NCBI GenBank assembly: GCA_963818965.1
Contig: CAWFUG010000009.1
Location: 192,001 to 256,000 of the forward strand
Direction: 5' to 3'
Origin: an uncultured Verrucomicrobiae bacterium
Lineage (GTDB): Bacteria; Chlamydiota; Chlamydiia; Chlamydiales; Rhabdochlamydiaceae
Length of the DNA stretch: 64,000 nucleotides
Part shown: positions 326-59,860 of the stretch, piece by piece
Numbering within the stretch: the stretch's first letter is position 1
Layout of the letters: each line of letters starts with the position of its first letter
The notes under the pieces: generated by a model
What the model was told of the DNA's origin: nothing
The model's input: only the letters and a program-made list of their open reading frames with translations
The model's database searches: none
Program-made: the position numbers and the translations under genes

Positions 326-1476
326 GACAGGTTTTCATCCTCATTTGGAAAGAGCTTTTGACTGTGTTGCGCGACCAGAAAGTGCGCATTTCGATTTTAT
401 TGCCCCCGCTCATTCAGCTCTTCGTCTTCACATTTGCCGCAACGCTCGATGTCAAAGATGTCCCGATCGGCATTTTGAATCGGGACTCAGGAGAGAAGGC
501 CTTTGAGCTTGTCGAAAGATTTTACGGGACGAAGATCTTCAACAACAAGATCATCTTCCTCAAAGGGGTCGAACAGATCGCCCCTTTCATGGATACCCAG
601 AAAGGAGTGATGGTGGTCTCCATCGATGAGCAATTCTCCCGCAATCTCGACGCTGGAAAACCCGCAGATATTCAGCTCATCTTAGACGGAAGAAAGACGA
701 ACACCGCACAAATCGTCGCAGGTTATACACAGGAGATCATCAACCGCTTTAACAACGACTACACCGCACAGGCAGATTTATACCCTGCGCGCTCAAATGC
801 ACCATCCTCAAGCGCGCGGGGTATAAAAACACAAAACATAGAACTCGTTCCACGCACCTGGTTCAATCCGAATATCCTCTATTTTTGGTACAATATCCCC
901 TGTCTCGTCTGTGTCCTTTCGATGCTGATCTGTCTCGTCGTCACGACACAATCGGTAGCCAGAGAGCGGGAACTCGGCACCTTCGATCAGCTCCTCGTCT
1001 CGCCCCTGACTCCCCGAGTGATTTTGATCGGTAAAGTCGTCCCCGGCGTCATCGTCGGCTTTTGCGAAGGGCTCGTGATGCTCATCATCGGAACCTGCGT
1101 CTTCGGCGTGCCCTTTATGGGATCTTTGCCCCTGTTTTTATTTAGCCTCATCATCTTCGTCAGCTCGATCTGCGGCGTCGGCCTCTTTATCTCCTCCCTC
1201 TCTGCAACCCAGCAGCAGGCGATGCTCGGGACATTTGTCTTCATGCTCCCCTCCGTGCTCCTCTCAGGCTTTGCGACCCCGATCGAAAACATGCCCACCT
1301 GGCTCCAGCCCGTGACTTACCTTATCCCCCTTCGGTACATGCTCGTCATCTCGAAGGGGATTTTCCTCAAAGCGATGCCCGCTAGGATCGTCCTAGAAAA
1401 CCTCTGGCCCCTCTGCGTGATCGGCCTATGCAATGGCCTAGGGGCAGCTCTATTTTTCCGCAGGAGGCTCCCATGA
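322..1476 (+). CDS. ABC-2 type transporter permease (YbhR-like) carrying a 15-aa palindromic-element insert
   Basis: Probable TTG start overlapping upstream TGA, with GAGG RBS; motifs ARERELGTFDQLLVSP and LSGFATPIENMP. Confidence 0.88.
   Translation: MRQVFILIWKELLTVLRDQKVRISILLPPLIQLFVFTFAATLDVKDVPIGILNRDSGEKAFELVERFYGTKIFNNKIIFLKGVEQIAPFMDTQKGVMVVSIDEQFSRNLDAGKPADIQLILDGRKTNTAQIVAGYTQEIINRFNNDYTAQADLYPARSNAPSSSARGIKTQNIELVPRTWFNPNILYFWYNIPCLVCVLSMLICLVVTTQSVARERELGTFDQLLVSPLTPRVILIGKVVPGVIVGFCEGLVMLIIGTCVFGVPFMGSLPLFLFSLIIFVSSICGVGLFISSLSATQQQAMLGTFVFMLPSVLLSGFATPIENMPTWLQPVTYLIPLRYMLVISKGIFLKAMPARIVLENLWPLCVIGLCNGLGAALFFRRRLP
777..827. repeat. Short TA-flanked palindromic element, in frame in the permease
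   Basis: 17-bp inverted repeats (1 mismatch) TTTATACCCTGCGCGCT/AGCGCGCGGGGTATAAA; interior nearly identical to the right arm of the 47936-48030 element. Confidence 0.9.
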
Positions 1477-2948
1477 AAATTTGGAAATTCATCCCCCTTA
1501 TCTCTCTCGCAGGGTGCATGGTCGGCCCCAATTACAAAACCCCAAAAGATGACGTCGCAGACACTTGGGCCTCTCCTGAGTCTTCTGAAGTGGCAACGGA
1601 AGAGACGCCGCTGGTCGAGTGGTGGGAGATCTTCGACGACCCCCTTCTCTCCAAATACATCGCTATGGCAGCGGAATACAACAACGACGTTTTGACAGCG
1701 ACCGAGACGATCTTACAAGCGCGCGCCCTAAGACAAATCGCCGCCTCCTCATTTTTTCCCCAAATTGGCGCCGACGTAAATGCGACCCGCACCTACTTCA
1801 GTAAAAATGGCCCCCTCTTTGCCATCGGCCCCAGTACGGGCAGTGTCCCAGGGACTGTTTCAGGGACGACTGGACTCCCTTTTACGGTCCAAGTCCCTCA
1901 GACGCAAAATCTCTATAACGCTCTCTTTGATGCCTCTTGGGAGATCGATCTCTTCGGTAAGACCCGCAGATCTGTCGAAGCAGCAGACGCCGTGATCGGA
2001 CGGACGATCGAAGCGCGCAACGACACCCTCCTCTCCGTCATGGCAGAGATCGCACGCAATTATATCGAGCTGCGCGGTTTCCAAAAAAAGGGGGAGCTCA
2101 TCCGCGAAAATATCGCCCTTCTCGAGACTAAAGCGCTGCTCGTCGCAAGGCAATTGGCCGTCGGATATGTAAGCGATCTCAATGAAGAAGAGATCCAAGC
2201 GCAGCTCTCTACTGAACGCGCATTGCTCCCCGACATCGAAGCGCAGATCTACCGCAACATGTACACACTCTCTATCTTGACAGGAACTGTTCCTGAAACA
2301 CTCGTCTCTGAACTCTCCCCCGTGCAGCCCCTTCCCAAAACACCCCCACAAGTCGCCGTCGGTCTCCGCTCCGATCTGTTGCGCCGCAGACCAGACGTAC
2401 GTCGAGTCGAACGCGATCTCGCTGCCGCAACCGCCAATGTCGGCGTCGCTGTCGCCTCCTTCTTTCCCACCTTCACCCTGATCGGCGATGGGGGATTGCA
2501 GTCCCTTCTGCTCAGAAACCTCTTTTCTCTGCCCAGCAAGACCTGGGCGTTCGGAGGCGATTTCAATATCCCCATCTTCCAGGGGGGCAAGTTGACGGGT
2601 AATCTCAAACTGAGGCGCGCAGAAATGGCTGGCACAGCCTACACCTACCAACAAACCATCCTCAGTGCCCTCGAAGAGACAGAGAGCGCCATCGTCTCCT
2701 ACACACAAGACCTCTCCACCGCACGCGAGAGAAAACAAGCGACGCAACACTACGACGCCCTCGTTTTCTTAAGCCGCGAGCGTAAGGCACGCGGCCTCAC
2801 CAGCCTCCTCGACCTCATCGACACAGAGCGCACCCTCAACCAATCAGAGCAAGACCTCCTCCAAAGCGAAACGGCGGCCCTCCTCGACCTCATCAGCCTC
2901 TACAAAGCCCTCGGCGGCGGCTGGGAAAACATGCTAGATAACAATTAA
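1473..2948 (+). CDS. Efflux outer membrane factor lipoprotein (NodT/OprM/TolC family)
   Basis: Lipobox LAGC-MVGPNY; SWEIDLFG, RRRPDV and LYKALGGGW motifs; ATGA overlap with permease. Confidence 0.92.
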   Translation: MKIWKFIPLISLAGCMVGPNYKTPKDDVADTWASPESSEVATEETPLVEWWEIFDDPLLSKYIAMAAEYNNDVLTATETILQARALRQIAASSFFPQIGADVNATRTYFSKNGPLFAIGPSTGSVPGTVSGTTGLPFTVQVPQTQNLYNALFDASWEIDLFGKTRRSVEAADAVIGRTIEARNDTLLSVMAEIARNYIELRGFQKKGELIRENIALLETKALLVARQLAVGYVSDLNEEEIQAQLSTERALLPDIEAQIYRNMYTLSILTGTVPETLVSELSPVQPLPKTPPQVAVGLRSDLLRRRPDVRRVERDLAAATANVGVAVASFFPTFTLIGDGGLQSLLLRNLFSLPSKTWAFGGDFNIPIFQGGKLTGNLKLRRAEMAGTAYTYQQTILSALEETESAIVSYTQDLSTARERKQATQHYDALVFLSRERKARGLTSLLDLIDTERTLNQSEQDLLQSETAALLDLISLYKALGGGWENMLDNN

Positions 2949-3092
2949 ATAGGGTTCATCCGCTGAATACGTAAGCAAATACTATATTGTGAGCGGTAGG
3001 AAATGGTGGGAATGATATAATGATATGAATGATGAAGAGGAGAATGGTTTTATATGCAGAAGAACTTACAATCTGAATTAAGTTCGATAGAG

Positions 3093-3557
3093 TTAAGAGA
3101 GTGTATTTTGCTCAGTGTCTTCTAAAAGGAGTTTTAGAATTTTTTCGTATGCACTTTTAGCGCGTTTGATGAAAAAACGGCCCATAAGTGGAGCAAGTAG
3201 ACTCATGATAGATGTGTTTATAGTCAGGATCGTCTTTTCATAAGTGATTGCTCGAAAAACACAAGTAGAGATTTGAGTAAACAGAGGAACCTTCACTTGG
3301 TACGTATATTTCTTGATTGGATATATTTCTGTAATTAATATAGAAAAAGTCATGCTGCGGTTTTTGACTTTTGCTCTTATAACGGCACCCTCTCTGAGCT
3401 CTCCCTCTAGTTGACAAGACTCCAACCGATCATCCCATTTAGGGAAATTGTTTGGATTAGTCATAAAATCCCAAACTTTTTGAGAAGAGAGATTTATCTC
3501 CATGGAATATTCGTGAGAAAATTTGAACGCAAAGTGTTCAAAAGACCATTTCAACAT
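3093..3557 (-). CDS. SRPBCC (polyketide cyclase-like) family protein
   Basis: 154 aa with EIN..SQKVWDFMTNPNNFPKWD N-terminal motif. Confidence 0.65.
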   Translation of the reverse strand: MLKWSFEHFAFKFSHEYSMEINLSSQKVWDFMTNPNNFPKWDDRLESCQLEGELREGAVIRAKVKNRSMTFSILITEIYPIKKYTYQVKVPLFTQISTCVFRAITYEKTILTINTSIMSLLAPLMGRFFIKRAKSAYEKILKLLLEDTEQNTLS

Positions 3558-3928: not shown

Positions 3929-6900
3929 CTAGTAAATTGGCAGCCAAGGTGTTCCATCTGGATTTGTAATCCCTGGGACATGGGCATGAGGATTTTGTGA
4001 GCGAGGGTCTTGATGGACTGGACTAGGCGGATGACCTTTACCGTCTTTTCTCAGACCTGTAGCTTCCCCATCTTTATCTTTTTCTTGAATACATTTACCA
4101 TCCTTGGAACCTCCAAGCTGATGTCCTTCAGGGACAGGAATAATATTTCCTTTTGCATCTCCGATAAACACTTGATCATCTACAGGTCCATCAAAAGGAT
4201 TGGTATTCTGCTCTTTCTTTTTCTTTGCATCAAGCGCCTTGTTCAGCCCATACTGAGAAACACCACCGATATTTTGCACGATTTGGTGCGCAACTGCATT
4301 AAAATTTCTAGCAAACGAGCTGTGAGAATGCCGGTCCTGTTTCTCAAGCTCATGGGCAAGATACGCAGCCGCTAAAGCTACTACCAACGTCTTCACGGTC
4401 AGTGCCACTAAAGGAATCGCGATTACGAATTGTCCATCAGGATCTGTATACCGGAAGGGATTATTAAAGACATATTGGTAAAGATTCGTGCTGTCGACAA
4501 AGCCTGCGGGGTCTGTCGTGAGCCACCTTCCCAAACGGGGGTCGTAATAGCGCCTGCCAAAGTAGATGAGACCGAGCTCTGGATCGAATCGCTTTGAGGC
4601 AAACTGCCAGGGGTTAAAGAAGTCAGCCAGGACGGCTGACTGCAATGGCTCCCCAAAGGCTGTAAAATCGTAACTGTGTGTTGTTTTTCCATCCTTAATC
4701 TCGACAAGGCGTCGCACATTACCTTGCACGTCTAAGAGTGGTGCGAAGACTTTGGATCCTAACTCGATGCCCACTGTGGCTGGGCAGCCTTTTTGCTTGC
4801 CTAGACCCAATACTCTTAAGTTGTTGAGCTTCCCGCGGGGACTCAATGCGCCGATTTCATGTTGGCCGTGGTAGAGGTAGTGCTCTTGGGTCGTCTCTTG
4901 CCAGCCGTGATTTGTTTTGGCATAGAGGGTCTTGCTGAGGCGTCTTCCGAGGGGGTCGTAGAGGTAGGCGATTTTCTGATCGATAGAGGTCGCTGCGATG
5001 AGTCGATTGAGCGGATCATAAGTCAGCTGGAATGAGGTGGAAGGGGTGTCGAGAAGGAGTTGATTCCCATTGCGGTCGTAGGGAGTATTTATGCGCTCAT
5101 TGAGATCGTTTGTGGCGTAATGGGTGTCGTCTTTTTGGGTGCGATTGTGGAGGGAATTGTGTGCATAGGTGAGGTTATTTTCAGAAGAGAGTTGGGAGAG
5201 GGGGTCGTAGGTATAGTGGTGGTTTATACCGTCGTCAGTACGATCCGTTAGATTGCCGACGGGATCGTATTGGCACTCTTCAGTGAAATAGGGACTGGAA
5301 AGGGAGATTTTTTGCTCTTTGAGATTGATCCTATGAATGACGGGACCCAAGTCGCCGATTAACGCTTCTGAGACGAGATTGCCTCCTTTATCGTATTCTT
5401 CGTAGGTGTGTTGATAGAGGAACTCTCCATTGGAAGAGAGTCGCGTGACGTGGCGCAAGAAGAGAGGGTCGTAGCTGTAATGGACCTCTCCTAGGGATCC
5501 CATCTTTAAAGTGATGAGGCGATTAAAGGGGTCATATGTCTTTGTGACTTCGATCCCATTGGAGAAGCTCTCTTGGAGGACATTCCCAGAAGGATCGACC
5601 TGACGCTCTATGGCGCTGTTTTGGTTCTCATCGACCGCTTCGAGTAGATGACCCAAGCGATCGTGGGTAAATGCGTGGTGGATGCTGCCATCAGAGGAAT
5701 CGAGGCGGCTTAGGGAGCCTAAAGGGTCATAGCTGTAGGAGAGGGTTGCTCCGCCGGGGGGTGTCTTCGTTGCCATTTTCCCTGAAGGGAAATAAGTATA
5801 CGCTGTCGTTCTCGCCTCTTGCGTACCAAAGGCTCTCGTGCAGCTTTCGATCTGATGGCACGGAGTATAGGTATACTGGGTAATCTGGGTCCCTTGAAGC
5901 TGTTTATTTTCAAAGACGAGGTCTTTTCTGAATGAGAGGTTGCCGTGAGGGTCGTAGCTCATTTCTTGGCGAGCGATGAGCCCATCTTTTATGGTCTCTT
6001 TTTTTACGGGTTTAGCAAAGGCGTCGTGGGTCTCGCGGGTCAGGAGGAGAGGGTCTATCGTGGTGGTTTGCAAGACTCTTTGACCCAGGGTGTTTTTGCA
6101 ATTTTCATCGTAGAATGTCTTCGTGGAATGCCCTTCAGGATCCTCTTTTTTTGTGTGTCTGCCGAAGGAATCATATGAGAAAATCTCTTTCGCTTCTTTC
6201 CCATTGCGGTAGTGTGTGATACTCGTTTGGTTCCCATCTGCATCGTAGGTATAGCTGACTTTAAAGAGGGTTTGCTCAGATGAGTCTGCATGCCGCTCTT
6301 CGAGGAGCTGTCCCTCGAGATCTCTTGTGTAGTGGATAAAAAGGGTGTTATTTTTACAAACTGTGGCGACTCGTCCTAGGGAGTCGTAGATCACTTCTGA
6401 ACTCTTGCCACAGAACTCTTCTCTGATCTTTCTTCCGGCACCATCGTAAAAGTGCTGTCTGAGGTTTCCCTCTTTGTCGGTCTCTTGCAGGAGATGAAAT
6501 CCGTTGTAGGCAAATGTCTCCTCTGCAAGGGCTTTTCCCTCTGGAGAGGTGTAAGTTTTAGAGAGAGTCCGCCCTAAGACATCGTATGTGTAGTGGATCG
6601 CCAGACCATCGAGCTGGGTATGTGTGTGTAATTTTCCATTTTTTGTGTACCTGAAGAGTTCTTTGCCGCCATCGGGGTAAAGAATTTCAGTGGGGGAGCC
6701 GTAGATATTGTACTGGTAGGTCGTGACGTTGCCAGTGGCGTCTGTTTGGGTCAGGGCCCGGCCCAGGGTGTCATAAGTACAGTAGGTGGTGACGGGAATG
6801 GGTTGTCCCTCATCTGAAGCGAGGGGAGGAAAATCGGTCTTTATGACTGTATTGACGAGCGGGTTATAGACATAGTGCGTGACATTGTCGAAGGGGTCTT

Positions 6901-9001
6901 GTTTTTGGATCTTGCGATTGTAGAAATCGTAGTCCCAAGAAGTGGTATGCTGAACCCCTTCTACTGCTTGTTCTATTTTTTGTTTGAGCCTAGCGTTGGC
7001 GTCGTAGTGGTAAGTGGTCGAGAGACGCTCAGAAAAGTTGCGAGAGGTCTCGAGGTGGCCACGTGCGTTATAGCTATGGGTTGCCGTTTGTCCCAAGCTG
7101 TTGGTCTCTGCGAGGAGATTTCCCGCTTCATTGTAGATTTTGTAGAGGTTGTAGGCATAGTTCCCTTCTGCATCGTACACTTCTTCTTCGGAGATGTTAC
7201 CGTGTGCGTCGTAAGAGAGATGTGTTTTTTTTAGGAGCTTTTCTCCACCTGATTTTAGGGAAGTCTCTTCGATCCATTCGGGCATATGGAGAAAAGGGGA
7301 AGACTGGCGCAGGGTGTATCTTTTCTGCGTTCTTTGTGTCATGCTGCTTAAATCGTCTAGGGACTCTCCGGAGCCATCGTCAGAGATTTCCCGAATGAGT
7401 TGGTGACAATCATCGTAGACGAAAAATTCTCTCAAGAGAATTTCATCTCCTTTTTTTGTCAGTTTGGAAGTGATGAGGTTGGTGTTCGGGAGATACGACC
7501 AGCAGACGACTTTCCCCTCTTCCATTTCTTCTCTTAAAAGAAGGTGTCTTCCCTCGTTTGAAAAAACTCTTCTAATCGTTACAGTCTCTGGATATCCCTC
7601 TCCTGATAAATCTCCGGTAAATGTCTCGACGATGGGGTTGCCAAAGCTATCGTATTCATACGATTTTTTAAACAGCGTGTGTCCGTACTCATCTTTTACC
7701 TCTAGAGAAGCCAACCAATTTCTCTCGTTCCAGAAGAACAATTTTTCCTTTTTGATACTGCCGTCTTGCCCAAAATAGTGGATCGAAGTGGTGAGCAGGT
7801 CCTGAGAGAAATGATAGAGGGTCGATGTCCCATCGCTATTTTTAACGGTGGTCGAGCCTCCTCGGTGCCCTGCTACAGGCGGCACATAGCTGATGTCACA
7901 AATAGGCGCAAAAACATCTTCGAGTCCCACCGGCATCTGAACTTTGCCCACTTTGTAGTGGGGAATCCCCTCACCAAACCCAAAGTTGCCGACATTGAAA
8001 ATTTGATCCTTGCCGTAGCGGTTACATAGAAGAAGGTTCGAACAATACTCTAAACATTCATGGCGGTAGAAGGGGCTACCGACGAAAGTTAAAAGGGGTG
8101 GAGAAAGGGGATGAACCCCTCGCTTCTTGCCATCCTCTTTCCATTTCCAAGAGAACGGGATTTTTTGATAACCATAATCCACTGTTACTCCTGAAGAGGA
8201 GATAAAATGGACGTGTTTTTCTTGGGGAGATCCTGTGACATGAAGAGTCGCGTAGACATAGCGCTCTTGGGGGTCGAGGCTCTCTACACGTTCGAGACAA
8301 CCGCGCGCTGTGTAATGGTATTTGAGGATTTTTCCATTGGGGAGGATTTCTTTTTCGAGCAGGAACATCGCGCCCACCTTGCTTCTAAAGTAGCTCCGCG
8401 TCGTGCCCTCTGGAGAAAAAACTCTGACTTTGTTTCCTTCGATCCATAGGCGCGTGTTTCGAGGATCGTACTTTCCACTCGGTACGTCTCCCACTACGTT
8501 GCTGATCGCGTAAGGGGGATCTACTAGAGAGGTCGTCCCATCAGGAGACCCTGACAAGAGAAAATCGAGCGTCATTCCATTGGAGTCTGAAAGGCGTAAG
8601 CTATATCTACTGGGGTGAGATTGAATGGAGAGCCCTAAGTGGGGAAAAAACTGCCATCCTTTGTAGTTCTTGTGGGCATAGTTGTACAACGCCTGTTTTT
8701 CATATTCTTTTGGATCGATCTTAATCTTTTTATCGTGCTGACGGTGTGGAAAATGACAAGGGATATAAGGAGGAATGTACACGCGGCTTAAAACGATCTC
8801 TTGTGCACCCTTGATGATGAGATCGGTTTCTCTTAAGGCGATTTGTCCTCCTAGGGGACTAACCACTCCTCCGATGAGGTAGGTGGATTCGCTTCTCAGC
8901 GCTGCGATTTGCTCAGGAGTCGAGAGGATGAGATCATCCTCTTCATCGGCAGACGCGATGAGAGTGGCCAAGAGAAAACAGAGCAGACTGATCGTGCGCA
9001 T
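3929..9001 (-). CDS. RHS/YD-repeat polymorphic toxin with N-terminal signal peptide
   Basis: Many YD repeats; core end RYYDPRLGRWLTTDP...NLYQYVFNNPFRYTDPDG followed by a distinct C-terminal domain. Confidence 0.92.
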   Translation of the reverse strand: MRTISLLCFLLATLIASADEEDDLILSTPEQIAALRSESTYLIGGVVSPLGGQIALRETDLIIKGAQEIVLSRVYIPPYIPCHFPHRQHDKKIKIDPKEYEKQALYNYAHKNYKGWQFFPHLGLSIQSHPSRYSLRLSDSNGMTLDFLLSGSPDGTTSLVDPPYAISNVVGDVPSGKYDPRNTRLWIEGNKVRVFSPEGTTRSYFRSKVGAMFLLEKEILPNGKILKYHYTARGCLERVESLDPQERYVYATLHVTGSPQEKHVHFISSSGVTVDYGYQKIPFSWKWKEDGKKRGVHPLSPPLLTFVGSPFYRHECLEYCSNLLLCNRYGKDQIFNVGNFGFGEGIPHYKVGKVQMPVGLEDVFAPICDISYVPPVAGHRGGSTTVKNSDGTSTLYHFSQDLLTTSIHYFGQDGSIKKEKLFFWNERNWLASLEVKDEYGHTLFKKSYEYDSFGNPIVETFTGDLSGEGYPETVTIRRVFSNEGRHLLLREEMEEGKVVCWSYLPNTNLITSKLTKKGDEILLREFFVYDDCHQLIREISDDGSGESLDDLSSMTQRTQKRYTLRQSSPFLHMPEWIEETSLKSGGEKLLKKTHLSYDAHGNISEEEVYDAEGNYAYNLYKIYNEAGNLLAETNSLGQTATHSYNARGHLETSRNFSERLSTTYHYDANARLKQKIEQAVEGVQHTTSWDYDFYNRKIQKQDPFDNVTHYVYNPLVNTVIKTDFPPLASDEGQPIPVTTYCTYDTLGRALTQTDATGNVTTYQYNIYGSPTEILYPDGGKELFRYTKNGKLHTHTQLDGLAIHYTYDVLGRTLSKTYTSPEGKALAEETFAYNGFHLLQETDKEGNLRQHFYDGAGRKIREEFCGKSSEVIYDSLGRVATVCKNNTLFIHYTRDLEGQLLEERHADSSEQTLFKVSYTYDADGNQTSITHYRNGKEAKEIFSYDSFGRHTKKEDPEGHSTKTFYDENCKNTLGQRVLQTTTIDPLLLTRETHDAFAKPVKKETIKDGLIARQEMSYDPHGNLSFRKDLVFENKQLQGTQITQYTYTPCHQIESCTRAFGTQEARTTAYTYFPSGKMATKTPPGGATLSYSYDPLGSLSRLDSSDGSIHHAFTHDRLGHLLEAVDENQNSAIERQVDPSGNVLQESFSNGIEVTKTYDPFNRLITLKMGSLGEVHYSYDPLFLRHVTRLSSNGEFLYQHTYEEYDKGGNLVSEALIGDLGPVIHRINLKEQKISLSSPYFTEECQYDPVGNLTDRTDDGINHHYTYDPLSQLSSENNLTYAHNSLHNRTQKDDTHYATNDLNERINTPYDRNGNQLLLDTPSTSFQLTYDPLNRLIAATSIDQKIAYLYDPLGRRLSKTLYAKTNHGWQETTQEHYLYHGQHEIGALSPRGKLNNLRVLGLGKQKGCPATVGIELGSKVFAPLLDVQGNVRRLVEIKDGKTTHSYDFTAFGEPLQSAVLADFFNPWQFASKRFDPELGLIYFGRRYYDPRLGRWLTTDPAGFVDSTNLYQYVFNNPFRYTDPDGQFVIAIPLVALTVKTLVVALAAAYLAHELEKQDRHSHSSFARNFNAVAHQIVQNIGGVSQYGLNKALDAKKKKEQNTNPFDGPVDDQVFIGDAKGNIIPVPEGHQLGGSKDGKCIQEKDKDGEATGLRKDGKGHPPSPVHQDPRSQNPHAHVPGITNPDGTPWLPIY

Positions 9002-9123: not shown

Positions 9124-9206
9124 AATACCAATCCTCGAATTTGGCCGATTCATAAGCTCCTGCGATCGTCAAACCGTGGGAGCTTATGAAGCCCTCAAAT
9201 GCATCA
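9124..9206. repeat. Degenerate, chimeric copy of the palindromic element family
   Basis: 12-bp IR TTCATAAGCTCC/GGAGCTTATGAA; shares CGAATTTGGCCG, ATAAGCTCC.GCGAT and CTCAAATGCA.CAT with other copies. Confidence 0.65.
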
Positions 9207-9225
9207 TTTTCCTTTTTGCAGAGAC

Positions 9226-27985: not shown

Positions 27986-29000
27986 ATGCTCTTATTCTTC
28001 CTTCGACTGTTCCTATTGTTGCTCACTCCTTCTTTTTTTCTCTATTCGCTCGATGTTCTTAATTATGACTTGCATGTTTTTTCTGTGCCGGGAAAGAGCG
28101 AACGGGTGATGCTCTGTTTCCATGGCTATGGAGGTAATTACGAGATTGCCTTGTCGCTTAAAAATCTAAAAACCATAGACGCTACTCTTGTGAGCTTCAA
28201 CTTTCCTGATTATGACATTGAGCAAAGAGGTGAGTACGATTATCGCAAGATGACATTTGGCACGATCGATGAGCTTTTGCCAGCTCTGCACGTCATGAAG
28301 CAGATCGTGCTGGATGGGGGAAGAAAAAGAGATCGATCTGTATGGATTTTCTGCAGGGGGCGGCGTTTTGATCAACGTACTTGGAGTGCTCAATACTTCC
28401 ACTTATGATGCTAGGCTTGAGGCAATGGGGATTGGAGCGGTGGAAAAAGAGAAGCTTCTCGCTGCAATTCAGAGGGGAATGGTGATTTTGGATACGCCTC
28501 TTATACTGCGCCCGGTCAGGAATTGCGAATTTGAGCCTTTGATCAGCTCCCGCGATTCCACGATCGAAAAGGGGGCCAGTATTGAGGAAATACAGGCCCC
28601 CTTTTCGATCGTGGAATCCCGGGGCTTTGACGCGCTCAAATTCACAATTCCTGACCGGGCGCAGTATAAATCGATCGAAGAGATCATTGCCTGTAGAAGC
28701 TCGACGGGTGAATTGGAGTGGTTGGCGAAAAATTATCGGGACAATCACTTCAGACCGATTGACTCGCTTAGATTGCTCCAGGGATTGTCTTTGGATGTTT
28801 TGTTGTATTTTCAGGAGGGAGATGAAATTCTCTCGAATCGAGATGATGACCTGTATATAGAGAGGTTGCGAGAGACTCAGCAAAAAATCGCAGTGATCAG
28901 GGGCAGTGAAGGGGGACATCAGTCTGCTCACCTGCCACTTTGGCAATTTTATGCGCAAAAAATGGAGGGAGAAGATGTTGGCACAACAGTATTGGAATGA
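27986..29000 (+). pseudogene. Secreted alpha/beta hydrolase split by a +1 frameshift at G5 (28316-28320), with a 55-aa in-frame element insert
   Basis: CFHGYGG in one frame, YGFSAGG elbow and GGH in the next frame; may be a sequencing indel. Confidence 0.7.
28501..28669. repeat. Full-length nested palindromic element (MITE-like), TA-flanked
   Basis: 36-bp terminal IR (1 mismatch) enclosing a perfect 24-bp inner IR (28554-28577/28595-28618). Confidence 0.95.
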
Positions 29001-31728: not shown

Positions 31729-31750
31729 TTAATTTGGGTTTTTTAATAAA

Positions 31751-32827: not shown

Positions 32828-32837
32828 TTTTATACTT

Positions 32838-35158: not shown

Positions 35159-35283
35159 AGTTGGCCTTTTTTGGTTTCTGAAACGATAACATAAGAGTTG
35201 GGGGTGGATGCAAGAGGAATTTTCCTATTTTTAAGCGCTGTGTTATTATGCGCGTCACGAATCCTTCTAAGGGAGAGTAAGTC

Positions 35284-37053: not shown

Positions 37054-37144
37054 GATTTGGCCGTGGAGGCTCTTGCGGCAATACAGCGGTGGTAAGATAT
37101 TTTCTGAAGGTGCTATAACTGCTCATCTCAAAGGGGAGGAGTGC

Positions 37145-37786: not shown

Positions 37787-37820
37787 AAAGAATTCCAAAC
37801 AGATTGCGGGAGATCGTTAT

Positions 37821-38216: not shown

Positions 38217-38224
38217 GAAAAGCG

Positions 38225-39187: not shown

Positions 39188-39231
39188 GAGATAATTCTAC
39201 ACAAAGCTGAGGTTAAAACCAATTTCTTGGT

Positions 39232-41190: not shown

Positions 41191-41230
41191 GAGGAAGAAT
41201 TTTAGCAGGGGGGGGTGTTTTCCGTCTATT

Positions 41231-41263
41231 ATTCAGAAGTTATCCGTAGGACAACTTCTGAAT
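41231..41263. repeat. Short hairpin with CCGTAGG core
   Basis: 11-bp IR ATTCAGAAGTT/AACTTCTGAAT next to the following element. Confidence 0.5.
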
Positions 41264-41274
41264 TCATTGAGATG

Positions 41275-41343
41275 TACCACAGTCGGCTTGAAACTTCGAA
41301 TTTGGCGCGGCCAAATTCGAAGTTTCAAGCCGACTGTGGTATA
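41275..41343. repeat. Palindromic element (perfect 31-bp IR, CGCGG loop)
   Basis: TACCACAGTCGGCTTGAAACTTCGAATTTGG and its exact reverse complement, ending TATA. Confidence 0.92.
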
Positions 41344-41346
41344 GCG

Positions 41347-42525: not shown

Positions 42526-42564
42526 GCAATCCTCAAAAAGGGAAACTTTTTTTTCTTTTCCTTG

Positions 42565-42629
42565 TATACCCAAGTGGACTCAAAAGTTGGCGCGGCCCTA
42601 CGGCCAACTTTTGAGTCCACTTGGGTATA
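42565..42629. repeat. Palindromic element (perfect 27-bp IR, TATACCC...GGGTATA ends)
   Basis: TATACCCAAGTGGACTCAAAAGTTGGC and its reverse complement; 11-nt loop containing CCCTACG. Confidence 0.92.
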
Positions 42630-42757
42630 ACTGGTACCCTGAAAAACTGCAAACTGAATTTTTCAATCAAAAGTCACATCTTGGGTATTAATGGGATTAT
42701 TGGTAAGAAGAGAAATAGAACCTATGAAACCTTTTACTTGGGTATAAAGGGGACACG

Positions 42758-45383: not shown

Positions 45384-45463
45384 AGTGGGAGCTATTGCAA
45401 TATAAGCAAAAATCGCTTATACCCGAACGCCTTCGTGCGGCGTTGTTGCATAAAGGGAAGATA

Positions 45464-45539
45464 ATAACCACAGAGAGCACAGAGGACACAGAGAGAAAAA
45501 CAAAAAAAATGCCCCTCTCTGTGGTCTCTGTGGTATATA
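45464..45539. repeat. CACAGAG-periodic inverted repeat hairpin
   Basis: ACCACAGAGAGCACAGAGGACACAGAG ... CTCTGTGGTCTCTGTGGT. Confidence 0.7.
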
Positions 45540-45948
45540 GTGCTTCCAGTTCCAAAGGCACCCAACCTCATTTGAATCAAGGGTTAATATTAATTCAATA
45601 TTAATCTTTATTCGAATTTAGACTTTCATTTTGTACGATTATGGAAGGTATATAATCCCAACCTGGTCAAGTTAATCTACAGGTGTCTATAACAGTCATC
45701 AATTGTATGTAACCTTATATGCAGATAGAACCGTCCAGGACTACCTCGAAAAAATCTCCAACATGTATCGAAATACTGATTGTATAGCGTCATGTCTCTA
45801 CAAACCTTCCACAAGCGCTCTATTGGGTATTAAATTCGGGGAGTAAGGCGGTAGGTAATGCAATCTCGATTCGAGACCCCTTCAAACAATCGTGAAGTAA
45901 GGAGATGTTCTCGCTGAGGCTTGTTGAAGATTTTCTACGAGTTTTTAT

Positions 45949-46878: not shown

Positions 46879-46903
46879 AAAGCACACCCAAATTCACTTC
46901 AAC

Positions 46904-47855: not shown

Positions 47856-48031
47856 TATAGTGAACTCAAAAATTGGCCGTAGGGCCGCTTGATAAGCTCC
47901 CGCGATTGAGTTGCCAAAGAGGCGTGTTGTCTTATTACCCCGCGCGCTTGAGGATGGTGCATTCGAGCCTTTGATCAGCCCCCGCAGTTCGACGCGCTCA
48001 AATGCACCATCCTCAAGCACGTGGGGTATAA
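47856..48031. repeat. Composite palindromic element: left-arm fragment plus complete 33-bp-IR element
   Basis: 47856-47907 matches the 42565 arm and the 28501 core; IR at 47936-47968/47996-48028 ending GGGGTATAA. Confidence 0.88.
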
Positions 48032-48823: not shown

Positions 48824-48951
48824 GCCCGAGTGCATATACCGCTTCCACCTTAATCGTACCCAAGAAAACCGAATGAAAAGTTCTCAATTTGAGGCTTTTA
48901 ATCGGTTTGCTTGTGGTTACGATTGAGGTGGAAGGGGATATATACTCGGGC
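48824..48951. repeat. Long imperfect hairpin between convergent genes
   Basis: About 60-bp arms GCCCGAGT..CTTCCACC..AATCGTA..AAACCGA paired with the distal arm. Confidence 0.75.
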
Positions 48952-50685: not shown

Positions 50686-50697
50686 AAATAGGGTTGA

Positions 50698-50741
50698 TAC
50701 CACATTCGGCTATACCTAAGTGAGCTCAAAAGTTGGGTATA
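50698..50741. repeat. Nested remnants of two element subtypes
   Basis: TACCACATTCGGCT (41275-type end) abutting TATACCTAAGTGAGCTCAAAAGTTGGGTATA (internally deleted 42565-type). Confidence 0.7.
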
Positions 50742-54948: not shown

Positions 54949-55230
54949 GGCAAAGATTCCTTGGAATGAAAGGGTGAATTTGAACAGCAACCCAATTCCA
55001 AGTCAAGTTGTTTCAAAATTTTGTTGTGGGGTATAGCAAAGGGGGCTGTTTTATAGATCAGAGTGGCGTTGTTGCATAAATAACTGAATTTCAGCACAGA
55101 GATGGAAAACCACAGGTAGGAACTTTTTTCATATGAATTTCCTCTCTGTAGTGAAGTTGCATATATTCAGAATGGAATGATGGGGAGCTAGATTAGGTCC
55201 TGATGAATTACGCAACAACGCCGATCAGAG

Positions 55231-56253
55231 TTAAAAATCGAAACGCAAATCGGCCGTGAGTCCCTGTAAGATCAGGTCGATGTTATCGGTGCCTGAATCG
55301 TTGGTAAATACCTGAAACTGACTGAACCAGTCTTGGATCTCATAACTTATTTTCAGAGCAAAGTGGGAGCGGTTTTTATCGAAGTTGAAATCCCATCCGA
55401 GTCCCATGGAGGTTTGAAGCAGGAGAGCTCCAAAGTTTCGATTTTTCATCGGTATAGAGGTTTGGGTGTGAAATACATCGGTGAATTCATCTCGAAGTGT
55501 CCAATGACCCCACATAAAGGCACTTGTGAAATTGCCGATCAGACTGAAAACATGTCGGTTGACGTTTCCGAGAATCCATTGCGCATCGATCCCTCCCTTA
55601 GGGCCCCCTCCTCGGAAATTGTTTTTTACAGACTCAGAGCCTGAATATAAGAAGCCGGGAATGCCAAAATTCGGGGTCGACCATTTACCGTGGATCGCTT
55701 GATTGATCCATCCCGCTTTTGCACCAATTATTGGGCGCAAGGATAAGGATTTACTGACCAAGAAGCTCCTGCCTAAATCCCAATCGAACATGTTGTAATG
55801 GATGTTGAAGCTGATTTTCCCCTTTCCAAATGGTTCTAGTAGAGAAAGTCTCGCAGCTAAAAATCCCGACGTGATCGGTCCATTGGCATGAGCTGTGGTC
55901 CGCGTTTGAAACCAGGTATAGGTGATTTGTGTATCCCACTGATCATGGTGCATATTGTAACCGAGACCGACCCTAAAACCTGGGTCCCAACCGAAGGAGA
56001 TGGTTTTAAAAGTGTCCGTTACGAGATTCCCTTTCGCAGTGACTACATCCGCCCAGTCCACTGTTTCGCTGGTGTGCCAATACAGGGCGTTTGCGGAGAT
56101 GACGATACTTTTATCTTGGGTCTGGGGTCGATCGGAGAGGTTCGGTAATCCGCAATCCTTTCTCTTTGTCTGTTCACCCGTAGAACCGGCATAGAGCTTT
56201 ACGCCAACTGACAGGAGAAGAACAACCACTACTTGTATTAAAACATTTGCCAT
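55231..56253 (-). CDS. MOMP/Lpg1974-family porin
   Basis: WDPGFRVGLGY..HDQWDTQ, FDWDLGR, terminal LRFDF. Confidence 0.85.
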   Translation of the reverse strand: MANVLIQVVVVLLLSVGVKLYAGSTGEQTKRKDCGLPNLSDRPQTQDKSIVISANALYWHTSETVDWADVVTAKGNLVTDTFKTISFGWDPGFRVGLGYNMHHDQWDTQITYTWFQTRTTAHANGPITSGFLAARLSLLEPFGKGKISFNIHYNMFDWDLGRSFLVSKSLSLRPIIGAKAGWINQAIHGKWSTPNFGIPGFLYSGSESVKNNFRGGGPKGGIDAQWILGNVNRHVFSLIGNFTSAFMWGHWTLRDEFTDVFHTQTSIPMKNRNFGALLLQTSMGLGWDFNFDKNRSHFALKISYEIQDWFSQFQVFTNDSGTDNIDLILQGLTADLRFDF

Positions 56254-56278
56254 TTTGTTTTCTCTTATCTAGATCACG

Positions 56279-57295
56279 TTAAAAATCGAACCGGCAGTTG
56301 AAAGTCAAACCTTGGAGCGTTAAATCGCCATGTAAAGGTACGAGTTGCGAGGTAGGCACTCTGAGTTGATTGAGCCAAAGTTGCATTTCATAACCCAACT
56401 GCGTGGCAAAGTGGGACCTTCCCTTATTAAAATCGACATCCCATCCAATCCCTAAAAATCCTCTGAACATCAGGGCACCTAGCGTCAATCTCTTCATATT
56501 GACTACGACATCTGCTCCGGTGGAGTTCTTATACACGTTAGCGCAGTTCCAAGTGCCCCAGAGCGTCGCAGCGGAAAAATCCCCAAAAAGACTGGGATAG
56601 TGCGTGCCAAAATCGCGCAATTTCCATTTTGTATTCAAACCGCCGAGTGGGCCTACACCCCAAAAGTTATTTTTCGCATACTCTTTGCCTGAATCTGTCG
56701 TGAGGACCTTTGCAATAATCAGATCTTCGTAATGCACATGAATCGGTTGATGGATCCAACCTCCTTTTAGACCGATAAAGGGGCGTAGGGAGAGGCCTTT
56801 GCTCACCCAGTAACTGCGGCCTAATTCCCAGTCGAACATATTGAAAAGAAGGGCCCAACGGATCTTTGCGCGTTGTGCTAAATTGTCGCTTAGGTCTGCT
56901 GCAAAGAACTCAGGATGGATGGTCCCGTTCGTAATAGATATTTGCTTGGTTTGATGAGCCTCTGTTCGAAACCAGGTCCAATAGAGTTGTGTATCCCATT
57001 GATCGTATCGGAAATTGTATCCTGCCCCAACTCGAAAACCAAAATCCCAATCAAAATGGAAATCGGGTGCACCAAAAGAACTGGTGTTATCGCCTACTTT
57101 GAGCAGGTCTGCCCATACCGCTGAAGCTTCCTCTGAAACGAACCAGGCGAGGAAATCAGCAGAGAGATCCCATTTTCCTAAGACGCGTTGTGAAACGTTC
57201 GGTAGGCCGCGGGTTTCTAAAGGAGTCGGTTCTGCTGCATCCACTTGGACCAGTAGCATCAGCACGGCTAGAATGCAGATAATGCGCTTTTTCAT
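56279..57295 (-). CDS. MOMP/Lpg1974-family porin
   Basis: WDFGFRVGAGY..DQWDTQ, FDWELGR, terminal CRFDF. Confidence 0.85.
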   Translation of the reverse strand: MKKRIICILAVLMLLVQVDAAEPTPLETRGLPNVSQRVLGKWDLSADFLAWFVSEEASAVWADLLKVGDNTSSFGAPDFHFDWDFGFRVGAGYNFRYDQWDTQLYWTWFRTEAHQTKQISITNGTIHPEFFAADLSDNLAQRAKIRWALLFNMFDWELGRSYWVSKGLSLRPFIGLKGGWIHQPIHVHYEDLIIAKVLTTDSGKEYAKNNFWGVGPLGGLNTKWKLRDFGTHYPSLFGDFSAATLWGTWNCANVYKNSTGADVVVNMKRLTLGALMFRGFLGIGWDVDFNKGRSHFATQLGYEMQLWLNQLRVPTSQLVPLHGDLTLQGLTFNCRFDF

Positions 57296-57311
57296 GTTGG
57301 TTTATATAAAG

Positions 57312-58445
57312 TTAAAAATCAAAGCGAAGCTCAAGGGTCCCTCCTTGCAAGGTCAATTCATTGTCAAATCTTCCAGTGTCAAATGAGTAAAACTGGAGTT
57401 GATCTAACCAAAATTGCATTTCATATCCCAATTGCGTCAAAAAGTGATATTCACCCCTGCAAAAAGTGAGGTCCCAGCCGAATCCCAAGAAGGTCCTCAA
57501 CATAGAGGCTCCGCTGTTGTTGTGGGGAAGTTTCACAGAGACTTCTTGTCCGATGTCGTTTTTATACACATCCTTAAATGTCCAATGTCCATACAGGATT
57601 GCCGCAGAAAGATCTCCCAAAAGGCTTAAAGAATGATTGCCGAGGGCAAGTAAGTTCCACTTCGTGTTAATACCGATGCTGGGTCCCACGCCCCAAAAAT
57701 TATTTTTGATGTTTTCTCTTCCCATCTCAAAGGGTTGATAGACGGGGGGAGCGGGTGGAAGCGTCGGATCGTGCCATTGGGTGTGAATCGATTGGTAGAT
57801 CCAGCCTCCCTTTAGACCTACAAATGGTCGAAGCGATAGCGCCTTGCTAATCCAAAAAGCCCTACCTAATTCCCAGTCGAATATATTGAAATGGATCGTC
57901 CAATCGATGCTCGCCTTTTGATAGGTTAAACCTTTGACTCCAGCACCACTTGCATTATCGACATAGAAATTACCCACAAAGGCAGAATAGACTGAGTTGG
58001 GGACACTGGAGACGTGATCATTCCCTCTCGCATGAAACCGGGTATAATAAAATTGAGTATCCCACTGATCATGCTTCATCCCATAACTGAGACCGACTCG
58101 AAGACCGGCATTCCAATCGAACTTAATGTCCCGTATATCGCAAATTTCGGGGGAGCCGTCACCGCCTGTGATCACTTCCGCCCAGTTTTCAGTCCCGCTT
58201 TCCTGTGCACGCCAAACGAGAAGATCGGCGAAAATGGCAACACTTCTGGAGCTTGGTTTGAATCGAGAGGAGATGTTCGGCAGCCCGTTGCTAGTGTCTT
58301 CTGCTTGCTGAGTGGTTTGCTGTTTTTTCCCTGCAACAAGCCCATAGGAGTGGGCGGTGTTTGCATAGACGACGTTGGCCAGAAGTGCCACCAGTCCGAA
58401 AAAAAAATTCGCTCTCAAAGGCAGGCTCCGTTTGTGCTGAGTCAA
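57312..58445 (-). CDS. MOMP/Lpg1974-family porin
   Basis: WNAGLRVGLSY..HDQWDTQ, FDWELGR, terminal LRFDF. Confidence 0.85.
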   Translation of the reverse strand: MTQHKRSLPLRANFFFGLVALLANVVYANTAHSYGLVAGKKQQTTQQAEDTSNGLPNISSRFKPSSRSVAIFADLLVWRAQESGTENWAEVITGGDGSPEICDIRDIKFDWNAGLRVGLSYGMKHDQWDTQFYYTRFHARGNDHVSSVPNSVYSAFVGNFYVDNASGAGVKGLTYQKASIDWTIHFNIFDWELGRAFWISKALSLRPFVGLKGGWIYQSIHTQWHDPTLPPAPPVYQPFEMGRENIKNNFWGVGPSIGINTKWNLLALGNHSLSLLGDLSAAILYGHWTFKDVYKNDIGQEVSVKLPHNNSGASMLRTFLGFGWDLTFCRGEYHFLTQLGYEMQFWLDQLQFYSFDTGRFDNELTLQGGTLELRFDF

Positions 58446-58714: not shown

Positions 58715-58834
58715 AACAGTCTATCGACTTAAGAATCGGGTAGGGCCTTATCAAAGCCCTGGGATTCGACATATATCCCTCCCGATTTTTGGGTCGTATT
58801 CGGTATAACAGAATCATACAACTGAGGATTGACG

Positions 58835-59713
58835 ATGAGCAAAACAGGAAAGATTCGATCAGTATTATTGCTAAGTGGAATTTTTTTACTATCTACCAGT
58901 TTATGCCCCTGTAGCAGACAAAATACAGCACAGCGAGCAGAGGTCGCAAAACCGCAGCTTACTCAAGAGATCCGCTCTAAAGTCTTGGAAATCATAAAAT
59001 ACGCGCAGGATATTCCCGGATTAAAAGCGGAAGAATCTTCCTCTTTAAGAGAGAAAACCGCCGACATTTGGAATGCCCTCGTGGACAATTGTATCCTAGA
59101 GATAAGTGGTACAGACAAAGACGTACGCCCTCATTTCGTCGCGATTCAAGGGATGGTCGAACAGGTGCTCGCCTCTGAATTGCAAAAAGAAGTGAAGGTG
59201 CTCAAATGCATCATTCATACGCCCATGCCCGCAACACCTCTTTGCACGACAGGGGAAATTTCCAGAGAATTGGTCGATCCTTCTATTGAAGTCGATCCAG
59301 CCCGTCTGTTTACTGTAAAAGCGAGAACGACGATTCTCAGAGACTATCTTTTTAAGGGTGGGGACCTCTACAGCATTTATCCTAAAGAGGGACTAAAAAA
59401 ACGTACAGAGGAACAGCTGGAAATTTACCAGCAGGAATTAATGAATTACCCGACCCATCTTTTCGATCTCCCCTTGGAGTGTGAAACGATTCCCACGGAT
59501 CTGATTGGAGCGACTTATTTTTTCAAAGATCAGTCGGGTCACACGTTTGTCTTTGCCATTAAAATCGCACAAGCGAATGATCCAAAAGAAGTGGCTGATT
59601 TTGGACTGTGGTTCGGCCCTGTCGACCATCCCGCTGTTAAGCAGCGGATTCAGTCTGTCTCCCACTACTTGGAACAACAGCACTCAACTATTCTAAAAAC
59701 AGCGCAAGAATAG
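58835..59713 (+). CDS. Hypothetical exported or lipoprotein
   Basis: GAGG RBS; signal peptide ending LCPC. Confidence 0.7.
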   Translation: MSKTGKIRSVLLLSGIFLLSTSLCPCSRQNTAQRAEVAKPQLTQEIRSKVLEIIKYAQDIPGLKAEESSSLREKTADIWNALVDNCILEISGTDKDVRPHFVAIQGMVEQVLASELQKEVKVLKCIIHTPMPATPLCTTGEISRELVDPSIEVDPARLFTVKARTTILRDYLFKGGDLYSIYPKEGLKKRTEEQLEIYQQELMNYPTHLFDLPLECETIPTDLIGATYFFKDQSGHTFVFAIKIAQANDPKEVADFGLWFGPVDHPAVKQRIQSVSHYLEQQHSTILKTAQE

Positions 59714-59722
59714 TCCTTTTTA

Positions 59723-59860
59723 GAGGATTGCGAATTTGAGCGGTACATAAAAGCCCCGGGGTTTCACGATCGGAGAGGGAACCTGTATTTCTTCAATACT
59801 GGCCCCCTTTCCGATCGTGAAATCGCGGGAGCTTTCACGCGGCTTAAATTCGCAATCCTC
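59723..59860. repeat. Nested palindromic element, inverted relative to the 28501 copy
   Basis: 19-bp outer IR (1 mismatch); 59750-59833 matches the reverse complement of 28545-28628 at 75/84 nt by manual alignment. Confidence 0.92.

Follow-up and report, generated by a model that had tools for sequence, protein, structure and literature searches.

The closest described systems to the elements analysed here are the RPE of Rickettsia, reportedly described by Ogata et al. in 2000 and 2002, and several MITEs. IS630-family MITEs include RUP of Streptococcus pneumoniae and MITEEc1/ERIC of enterobacteria, and the Correia elements (CREE/NEMIS) of Neisseria are an abundant TA-flanked MITE of ~100-160 bp that occurs in full and internally deleted forms, often beside genes. 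Like RPE, the elements of this study are palindromic repeats scattered through the genome of an obligate intracellular bacterium, and some copies are inserted in conserved protein genes, where they keep the reading frame intact and open and lengthen the product by tens of residues. They differ from RPE in phylum, in their clear TA duplication, TAC...GTA ends and link to IS630-type ends, and in that most copies are intergenic, 80 of 96 complete elements lying outside long ORFs. The relation to RPE would be a likeness of behaviour only, and we claim no membership. The abundance, TA flanks, full and internally deleted forms and frequent position beside genes are shared with Correia elements, which, unlike the chlamydial elements, have ~26-bp terminal repeats and are not palindromic over their whole length; Correia elements are not known for in-frame insertion in housekeeping genes. 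Like RUP and MITEEc1/ERIC, the elements are small and gene-less, with terminal inverted repeats, TA duplication and a presumed IS630-type mobilisation in trans. In contrast to those MITEs, a single long hairpin takes up all 163-166 nt, its asymmetric core is invariant across the order with arms that covary from one subfamily to another, and a partner is missing from this genome as well as from several others rich in copies. The name MITEEc1_IS630 is used in a preprint (10.1101/2024.01.18.576219).

The window, the whole 64-kb stretch of DNA that was analysed, had been annotated initially with eight copies of one family. All eight coordinates hold palindromic sequence and are members or remnants of one family, five of them well formed (777, 28501, 41275, 42565 and the right part of 47856-48031) and three decayed or partial (9124, 50698 and 59723). 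The estimate of at least eight copies is exceeded by three further ones, at 48835-48944, at 58726-58810 and, as an E-type-like hairpin, within 45536-45655 (Table 1). An inverted-repeat scan recovered arms of 36 nt at 97% (28501/28669), 32 nt at 100% (41275/41341), 27 nt at 100% (42565/42629), 33 nt at 91% (47936/48028), 22 nt at 91% (59720/59863) and 22 nt at 82% (9139/9200); the arms had been called perfect up to 31 bp, which is slightly too low. When the eight listed sites (e1 to e8) were compared with the genome by blastn-short, 490 matches were obtained in total (133 for e5, the 42565..42629 site, 106 for e3, 101 for e6, 58 for e1, 48 for e8, 29 for e4 and 14 for e7). Seven of the eight sites have further genomic copies, and the 9124-9206 site matched only itself; this copy is tied to the family by 10 blastn matches of 9160-9211 to genome-wide copies and by an nhmmer E of 5e-5. 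The copy at 779..825 has ~10 near-identical 50-nt copies elsewhere in the genome. The stop codon of a porin-like gene precedes the 41275..41343 copy by 3 nt; this copy has TG on its left flank and TA on its right, and the copy at 59720..59876 lies just past a stop codon, between two convergent genes.

Table 1 Palindromic elements and the insertion-sequence remnant in the 64-kb window
Feature	Position	Strand	Description
Short form, B-type arm with internal deletion	779..825	.	TA + 43-nt element (781-823) + TA
Decayed chimeric copy	9124..9211	.	F-type-like left arm, right end unclear, between two minus-strand genes
Full-length A-type	28502..28668	.	TA + 163 nt + TA, in frame (55 codons) in an alpha/beta-hydrolase-like gene
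Short H-type	41275..41343	.	67-nt perfect hairpin (32-nt arms, 3-nt loop), inner module missing
Short C-type	42565..42629	.	TA + 61 nt + TA (27-nt perfect arms, 11-nt loop), divergent intergenic region
IS630-type insertion sequence, 3' remnant	45536..45881	-	Two frameshifted transposase C-terminus pieces (LHYLPPYSPNLIPN and YPIERLWKV), right terminal repeat ...GGAAGCACTATA followed by TA
Left half of C-type element	47856..47935	.	Arm, GGCCGTAGGGCCGC, linker, inner-stem start; truncated where next element begins
B-type short form	47936..48030	.	93 nt, 33-nt arms 91%, inner hairpin missing, then TA
E-type without central hairpin	48835..48944	.	~105 nt, between two convergent genes; nhmmer E 6e-12, 2e-12
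Nested remnants	50697..50741	.	15-nt H-type arm start, then TA + 27-nt collapsed C-type remnant (50713-50739) + TA
Decayed G-type	58726..58810	.	Right end ...CGGTATA kept, left end lost; single weak blastn match, compared by eye with G-type copies
Decayed full-length A-type	59720..59876	.	Inner hairpin 83%, nhmmer E 6e-30

In our reading, these elements form a genome-wide family of gene-less palindromic MITEs that insert at and duplicate TA, and a DDE_3 transposase of the IS630 family, no longer intact in the assembly, likely mobilises them in trans. The copies are not confined to the window: nhmmer found 111 + 36 loci (~147), dispersed across the 12 contigs of the assembly, which is 87.85% complete. 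Genome-wide, 96 complete TAC...GTA palindromes were recovered, five of which belong to an unrelated CACAGAG family. The elements range from 38 to 167 nt, with one 252-nt composite, and no ORF of transposase size fits in them. Full-length forms of 163 or 166 nt begin 5'-TAC and end GTA-3' between two TAs, and consist of a variable 30-nt arm, a short asymmetric linker, a GC-rich inner hairpin bounded by CGATCG, and the mirror-image arm. In the element at 28502 this GC-rich hairpin is flanked by A and T runs. The terminal inverted repeats measure 18-36 nt or more, and the outer 33 nt of the two arms differ at no more than 3 positions in 38 of the 54 full-length elements. The interchangeable modules named in the initial annotation exist and recombine, and the routes of evolution it proposed are all represented: arm swapping by two arm types that each occur with either of two linker types (four pairings in all), internal deletion by short forms with breakpoints at short repeats (one deletion derivative recurs at ~10 genomic sites), and nesting by nested and tandem insertions, the tandem elements sharing a single TA. 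The placement in a chlamydial lineage also held. The family is present in 53 of 150 genomes of the order Chlamydiales. The initial annotation knew of no description of the family but did not exclude one, and neither the literature search nor Rfam returned any.

The TA duplication postulated for these MITEs is visible both in the flanks and at empty sites. TA stands on both sides of 73 of the 96 complete elements, and positions farther out are near random. In a host repeat with paralogous sites, 14 of 15 empty copies carry one TA, against TA-element-TA at the same spot in two filled copies, one with a 72-nt G-type and the other with a 166-nt E-type element. Removal of the element and one TA from the hydrolase gene restores DTPL/KSIEEI, and from the permease gene ADL/KTQN, in both cases as in homologues; at the orthologous empty site, the same-family hydrolase ortholog reads CCT CTT AAA with a single TA. 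TA is also the target of IS630/Tc1-mariner elements. The palindromic, abundant and mostly extragenic nature of the elements would fit REP/REPIN-type repeats spread by a RAYT (Y1) transposase, the second driver proposed initially. REPs make no target duplication and lack terminal inverted repeats, both of which the present elements have, and Y1_Tnp (PF01797) had no match in the genome while control genomes matched; we regard this origin as extremely improbable.

The link to IS630-type transposases comes from the element ends and from a remnant in the window. No transposase had been noted in the window. This is correct as regards intact genes, a Pfam transposase match being absent from all 54 ORFs scanned, but not as regards the frameshifted IS630 remnant at 45536-45881. 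The transposase C-terminal coding part of this remnant spans ~75 codons (45677-45881); the remnant matches residues 276-351 of the L135 transposase (tblastn E 1.4e-8), aligns at the nucleotide level to the last 275 nt of the L135 insertion sequence (IS), the end included, and carries an E-type-like central hairpin. Its DDE_3 match is weak and fails the cut-off (E 0.012). By manual count, the E-type arm matches the IS630-type terminal repeat of L135 at 19 of 26 positions. Furthermore, the initial annotation suggested looking for a transposase with matching termini; a candidate exists in the relative G095, where five aligned copies of a 1153-bp IS, 99.7-99.9% identical and bounded by TA/TACCG...CGGTA/TA, encode a 362-aa HTH_29/HTH_33/DDE_3 protein. 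Its boundary TA/TACC...GGTA/TA is identical to that of the elements, and by manual reading TCGAAAATAA occurs both in its right end and in the F-type arm; this IS differs in being autonomous, 7x longer, without the MITE core and from another family of the order. In the present genome no intact copy was found, PF13358 (DDE_3) having no match in the 87.85% complete assembly. The likeness to IS630 ends is confined to the terminal 5-25 nt with no inward extension, and arm pairs 200-5000 bp apart enclose no gene, except two chance neighbours.

End similarity and the window remnant support an IS630-type transposase as the putative driver. Several element-rich relatives are without any IS630 gene, so this driver is inferred. 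DDE_3 was found in 45 of 151 genomes of the order, and the element is present in 22 of the 45 DDE_3-positive and 31 of the ~105 DDE_3-negative genomes, a weak overlap that, the genomes being related, is no test. Four copy-rich relatives (G118, G158, G032 and G122), each with at least 19 model matches, have neither DDE_3, even at E <= 0.1, nor DDE_Tnp_4; the assemblies of G118 and G158 comprise 6 and 3 contigs. G118 nevertheless has identical element copies and 59 near-perfect arms, its solo arms being collapsed or truncated derivatives and not the ends of a longer element. These genomes favour movement of the TA-mobile elements by something other than a resident IS630 enzyme, namely an unrecognised recombinase or host protein reading the asymmetric core or the hairpin, or an extrachromosomal transposase. 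The searches gave no candidate enzyme, insertion sequences often drop out of MAGs during assembly, orphan MITEs outliving their partner are common, and the TA duplication and TAC...GTA ends agree exactly with those of a genuine IS630-type element in the same order. This possibility therefore appears unlikely, though it keeps some weight. A family fossil in this genome, with copies that have stopped transposing and change only by decay, recombination and segmental duplication, would agree with the lack of an intact transposase in the genome, with the decay of several window copies and with the one copy pair that lies within a larger duplication (C7:69329 and C8:17967). Against such a standstill, some within-subfamily pairs are 100% identical, E-type copies at unrelated sites have a median identity of 94.6%, and the assembly is incomplete; we consider it quite improbable. 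The elements would transpose by a cut-and-paste mechanism at TA and gain copies when the gap left by excision is repaired on a filled sister copy. Repair that aborts or switches template, together with deletion stimulated by the hairpin, may give rise to short forms and mosaics. The family is also a natural data set on how MITEs persist without a partner.

The core (AAAGCTCCCGCG ... CGATCG ... CGATCG ... CCCGGGGCTTTG), which has a 1-nt bulge and a C.C mismatch, hardly varies among 42 elements drawn from many genomes, in whose arms change is saturated; it is absent from all 32 IS630-bearing loci examined. Besides adding to the case for another enzyme, this contrast raises the unlikely idea of an ancient hairpin family that has persisted throughout the order by not depending on a resident transposase gene, in which the core (AAAGCTCCCGCG / CCCGGGGCTTTG) would be the recognition site for an enzyme or host factor on the extruded hairpin. 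If so, orphan copies would keep amplifying, the arms would stay matched, and segments of 15-56 residues would be seeded into housekeeping proteins.

The changes in the arms are compensated, occurring on both sides in 53 of 66 pairs. Paired cells amount to 95.7%, against 73.7% in shuffles and 30-48% when the arms are slid, and strict Watson-Crick pairs make up 94.0% of cells. Among 2767 cells, 49 G.T and 37 A.C were counted, with no strand bias. What keeps the two arms complementary may act on the DNA, as copying of one arm from the other or as correction of mismatches while the hairpin is extruded, rather than on an RNA through selection. Functional RNA or regulatory structures under selection, such as terminators or small RNAs, would account for the many copies just past stop codons or between convergent genes, and for a GC-rich inner hairpin with flanking A and T runs. 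They are very improbable given the lack of strand asymmetry, the near absence of wobble pairing, the copies within coding regions, and the TA-flanked identical copies and empty sites. Moreover, a terminator consensus scan of 27001-47000 reported 16 sites and picked none of the elements at 28502, 41275 and 42565, and Rfam gave 0 matches in the window at the gathering score, its sub-threshold matches being only miRNA-precursor-like and on the 28502 element. As a clean natural data set, the family lends itself to studying how the arms of long DNA palindromes stay matched.

RPE-like insertion into genes had been anticipated and was found in the ABC-2 permease and in housekeeping genes. Sixteen of the 96 complete elements are located in ORFs that extend for at least 40 codons to either side, and the length added is divisible by 3 in 14 of the 16. 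The copy at 779..825 lies in frame in the ABC-2 permease gene and adds 15 residues (YPARSNAPSSSARGI) that are missing from all 8 aligned homologues. In the hydrolase gene, the protein pieces flanking the 28502 copy abut directly in 10 relatives; the gene is frameshifted at a G5/A5 run near 28316-28330, upstream of the element, and this copy is therefore no example of a tolerated insertion. The repeats inflate the calls of 'hypothetical' ORFs and add spurious insertions to protein alignments; they likely break chlamydial MAG assemblies, and they could serve as strain markers. After Rickettsia, the family provides a second, independent case of selfish palindromes within protein-coding genes, in another obligate intracellular phylum, and its many comparable genomes and subfamilies make the tolerance of insertions and their possible contribution of new protein segments testable across lineages. 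The copies that survive in genes may be those with few stop codons and a length of a whole number of codons. Full-length non-E elements have a mean of 2.38 open frames of 6, compared with 0.76 in palindrome-preserving shuffles, and 54% of them have at least 3 open frames, compared with 4% in the shuffles. The in-frame elements in EPSP synthase, tRNA U5-methyltransferase and P-type ATPase are flanked by Pfam domains on both sides, and a single domain match in PlsX spans the element.

The palindromic elements of the window belong to a real, abundant, order-wide family of MITEs that behave like the Rickettsia palindromic elements (RPE). All eight sites that the initial annotation had described as palindromic proved to be so, both by reading and in an inverted-repeat scan of the window. 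The best arms measure 36 nt at 97% identity (28501/28669), 32 nt at 100% (41275/41341), and 27 nt at 100% (42565/42629). With the three further copies listed in the table, the window holds 11 copies in its 64 kb. The ~147 loci of the 2.24-Mb genome would give an average of about 4 for a stretch of this size. The window corresponds to C9:192001-256000 of an assembly that comprises 2,236,974 bp in 12 contigs, is rated 87.85% complete, and has a G+C content of ~47.5%.

Features of the window, and Pfam matches in genes that host an element
Feature	Window position	Strand	Description	Source
E-type element	48835-48944		without central hairpin	blastn with genome-wide copies as queries, and reading
G-type copy	58726-58810		decayed	blastn with genome-wide copies as queries, and reading
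E-type-like hairpin	inside 45536-45655			blastn with genome-wide copies as queries, and reading
IS630-type remnant	45677-45881	minus	two frameshifted C-terminus pieces	
EPSP synthase			domain split by element into two matched stretches	Pfam
TRAM/tRNA U5-methyltransferase			domains either side of element	Pfam
Heavy-metal P-type ATPase			domains either side of element	Pfam
PlsX			single domain match continues through element	Pfam

Scanned genome-wide for inverted repeats, the assembly yielded 291 palindromic loci with arms of at least 18 nt. Single-linkage clustering placed 244 of them in one component that merges at least two kinds, and it was rejected as a family definition: members of the element family frequently neighbour those of an unrelated CACAGAG family, which led to their being lumped, and the two families were separated afterwards by their ends. 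Selection for symmetric TAC/GTA ends gave 96 palindromes genome-wide, 5 of the CACAGAG kind. A TA flanks the left side in 79/96, the right side in 82/96 and both sides in 73/96, with positions further out being near random. Their length distribution has sharp maxima at 163 and 166 nt, and short forms span 38-97 nt. With nhmmer profiles, 111 core-bearing loci (45 of at least 150 nt) and 36 loci of the E-type subfamily (25 full-length) were found, together occupying ~17 kb. The median pairwise identity within subfamilies is 87-97%, identical pairs being among them. A plasmid collection searched with the full-length element gave no match.

A full-length element starts with TA and TAC, followed by a variable arm of ~30 nt, AATTTG(A/G)GC-like bases and a linker of one of two kinds, ending in TTTGATCAGCTCCCGCG or GCGTGAAAGCTCCCGCG. 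The interior consists of ATTCCACGATCG, a G-rich stem and an AT-rich loop, and the right side mirrors the left, with CCCGGGGCTTTG, ending in GTA and then TA. The two linker sides are inexact complements, leaving a one-base bulge and a C.C mismatch in the hairpin, and this asymmetry is present in 42/42 aligned elements. At least 10 arm types exist in the genome; the E-type (166 nt) has ends common with the other types and a different interior. The modules proposed to be interchangeable are indeed so, since both kinds of linker are found with arm type A as well as with arm type B, and different arm types have inner stems in common. The central loop is found in either orientation relative to the linker asymmetry. 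Short forms are of two kinds. In one (41275, 42565), symmetric loss of the entire interior has left a near-perfect hairpin; the other comprises asymmetric deletions between short repeats, such as GCGCT in the 781 copy. In another chlamydial genome (G118), a 43-nt derivative with a deletion at a CACTT repeat, its arm fused to the final 12 nt, lies at three unrelated sites (L214, L216, and L217), which reflects either transposition of the derivative itself or repeated occurrence of the deletion.

The arms covary. In an alignment of 42 full-length elements, half of them (21) from the window's genome and half from further chlamydial genomes and MAGs, 53 of 66 predicted pairs have changes on both sides. 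Paired cells make up 95.7% of 2767, compared with 73.7% in 500 shuffles, none of which reached the observed value, and shifting the partner by 1-3 columns lowers the proportion to 30-48%. Strict Watson-Crick pairs account for 94.0%, and in fixed orientation the mismatches G.T (49) and A.C (37) are about equally frequent. An RNA under selection would tolerate G.U on one strand. The symmetry of G.T and A.C, being contrary to this expectation, points to arm complementarity that is probably kept at the DNA level. Rfam returned no match at the gathering score and otherwise only chance-level hairpin matches. A reading of the elements as terminators was rejected, as a terminator scan of window 27001-47000 left the three elements there (28502, 41275, and 42565) unflagged. 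No public RNA run was listed as containing the sampled words.

Insertion duplicates TA. A 72-nt element of the G-type subfamily (C12:47357) and a 166-nt one of the E-type subfamily (C9:411824) are inserted at one and the same point of another multicopy repeat. Of 15 empty copies of this host repeat that were inspected, 14 read ...ccattctgaa TA tatgcaat... and one reads TG, and the two filled copies read TA-element-TA. At window 28504-28666, removal of the 163-nt element and one TA restores the join of DTPL to KSIEEI. The two flanking protein pieces are directly adjacent in DNA at this site in 10 relatives, residues 64-118 are exactly absent from four aligned orthologs, and the same-family ortholog reads CCT CTT AAA, with TA at the predicted spot. 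Tandem elements have one TA in common. These protein-level and paralogous empty sites were used because no orthologous intergenic empty site could be aligned in the same-genus genome G001, where genes share ~65-77% nucleotide identity and nothing is alignable between them. A peat metagenome DNA run sharing 7% of the sampled words gave short, diverged contigs with no interpretable joint across the element.

One caveat on insertion within genes concerns the host gene of this 28502 element, alpha/beta-hydrolase-like, which has a frame change at a G5/A5 homopolymer (window 28316-28330), with the relatives' residues 32-130 in one frame and 126-302 in another; the gene is either a pseudogene or affected by an error in the assembly. 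In an ABC-2 permease that is intact in other respects, the 781-823 element and one TA account for 15 extra residues, which are absent from 8/8 aligned homologues. The closest named homologues of this permease come from MAGs labelled Rhabdochlamydiaceae, Simkaniaceae, and Chlamydiae. In P0028 (425 aa), a homologue from a different organism, a separate insertion of 56 residues lies 8 residues further upstream, starting IPNGTQKLA, which we read as the probable product of a C/D-type arm and hence of an independent insertion in the same permease loop. Genome-wide, 16/96 elements are embedded in ORFs that extend for 40 or more codons to either side, and the added length is a multiple of three in 14/16. 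Hosts of 12 of these 16 elements were scanned with Pfam and 9 gave matches, four of which are described in the table. For two others, the copy in a glycosyltransferase and the 90-nt copy in the ATPase, the added length is no multiple of three, so the boundaries or the true start codon differ from the simple model used. Full-length non-E elements have on average 2.38 open frames of six, compared with 0.76 in palindrome-preserving shuffles, and 54% versus 4% have at least three; because the copies are related, this excess is descriptive only. Lengths of 163/166 nt (whole codons with 2 nt added) were set aside as evidence on frame selection, being inherited within a few subfamilies.

The window was said to hold no transposase. 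None of its 54 scanned ORFs is one, but tblastn with chlamydial IS630-type transposases detected a decayed IS630-type remnant there (see the table), the only one that it found in the genome. Downstream of its pieces, a terminal repeat aligns to the end of the L135 IS630-type element. Neither DDE_3, the IS630-type transposase domain, nor Y1_Tnp, that of RAYT, has a match in the genome. IS630-type genes are nevertheless common in the order, being present in 45/151 genomes. G095 has five copies of a 1153-bp element with unrelated flanks, bounded by TA-TACCGTTCATG and AAACGGTA-TA and encoding an HTH_29/HTH_33/DDE_3 protein. Other chlamydial IS630-type elements have TAG... ends next to TA, and some of them include CTTCCAC, a sequence also present in the E-type arm. 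Taken together, the TA target, the signature of the ends and the local remnant suggest that an IS630-type transposase drives the elements. Movement by some enzyme of another type is a live alternative, favored by four genomes (G118, G158, G032, and G122) with at least 19 element matches each and no DDE_3 at E <= 0.1, by the identical copies in G118, where no longer element has matching ends, and by the lack of the conserved core in 32 checked IS630 loci. Elements and DDE_3 occur together in 22 genomes, elements only in 31, and DDE_3 only in 23. An autonomous partner with matching arms was looked for and rejected: in the window's genome no arm pair lies 200-5000 bp apart except two (2616 and 4848 bp), taken as neighbours, and solo arms in G118 are 43-nt collapsed or truncated copies. 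The Harbinger-type domain PF13359 had no match in 5 genomes; the search for Mariner PF01359 gave none even in the control, so this blank is uninformative. In behaviour, the chlamydial elements unite features of IS630-type MITEs (RUP, MITEEc1/ERIC, and Correia-like TA flanks) with features of the RPE.

With the 28501 element as BLAST query, its inner part was detected in 12/40 relatives. A covariance model built on full-length elements matched 53/150 genomes of the order and 42/110 genera (E <= 1e-5), the per-genome copy numbers being lower bounds, as at most 19 candidates were scored in each. Elements of other genomes follow the same plan at 159-162 nt with TA flanks. Among the matches listed in a scan of named records, carriers of the core motif are mostly Chlamydiota MAGs (labelled Parachlamydiaceae, Waddliaceae, Waddlia chondrophila, Rhabdochlamydia, or Chlamydiae), together with chance matches in GC-rich phyla. 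Literature searches found no description of such elements in chlamydiae, and the family is apparently unpublished. In the parts consulted, the Waddlia genome paper treats only repeats >200 bp, plus transposases (PMC2878342), and the main text of a prokaryote-wide MITE census does not mention chlamydiae (bioRxiv 10.1101/2024.01.18.576219).

Hairpin repeats are unusually abundant in this genome. A second, unrelated palindromic family, built on CCACAGAG / ACCACAGAGAGGGGAAACCACAGAGAGG repeats, occurs at window 45467-45534 and at ~105 loci genome-wide. The CACAGAG kind often lies within a larger conserved unit (AATAGCTGAATTTC ... GAAATTGCATATAT), which is the host repeat of the paralogous empty sites. 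At least four further palindromic families have ends starting GAACCTATCCCAGTAAAATTTTTCGTCGATTTTCGG, AGAGTCTGTCTACAATCTCGG, GGAAATGGTAGGAATGATATAATGATA, and CTCGACTTTGTACATTTTTGCG (example loci C1:199802-199948, C11:351730-351876, C2:111295-111429, and C2:66785-66944). The Legionella_OMP porin family is represented by four paralogous genes, three of them in tandem, at window 41347-42573 and 55231-58445. A 30-nt inverted repeat outside the element family (55050-55079 / 55208-55237, 77%, 128 nt apart) separates beta-barrel and porin genes. A decayed element lies just upstream of the start of an RHS-repeat protein gene (1690 aa, 3929-9001, minus strand). A repeat of ~1.7 kb has two copies in the genome, at C9:448489-450216 and C2:48810-50536.
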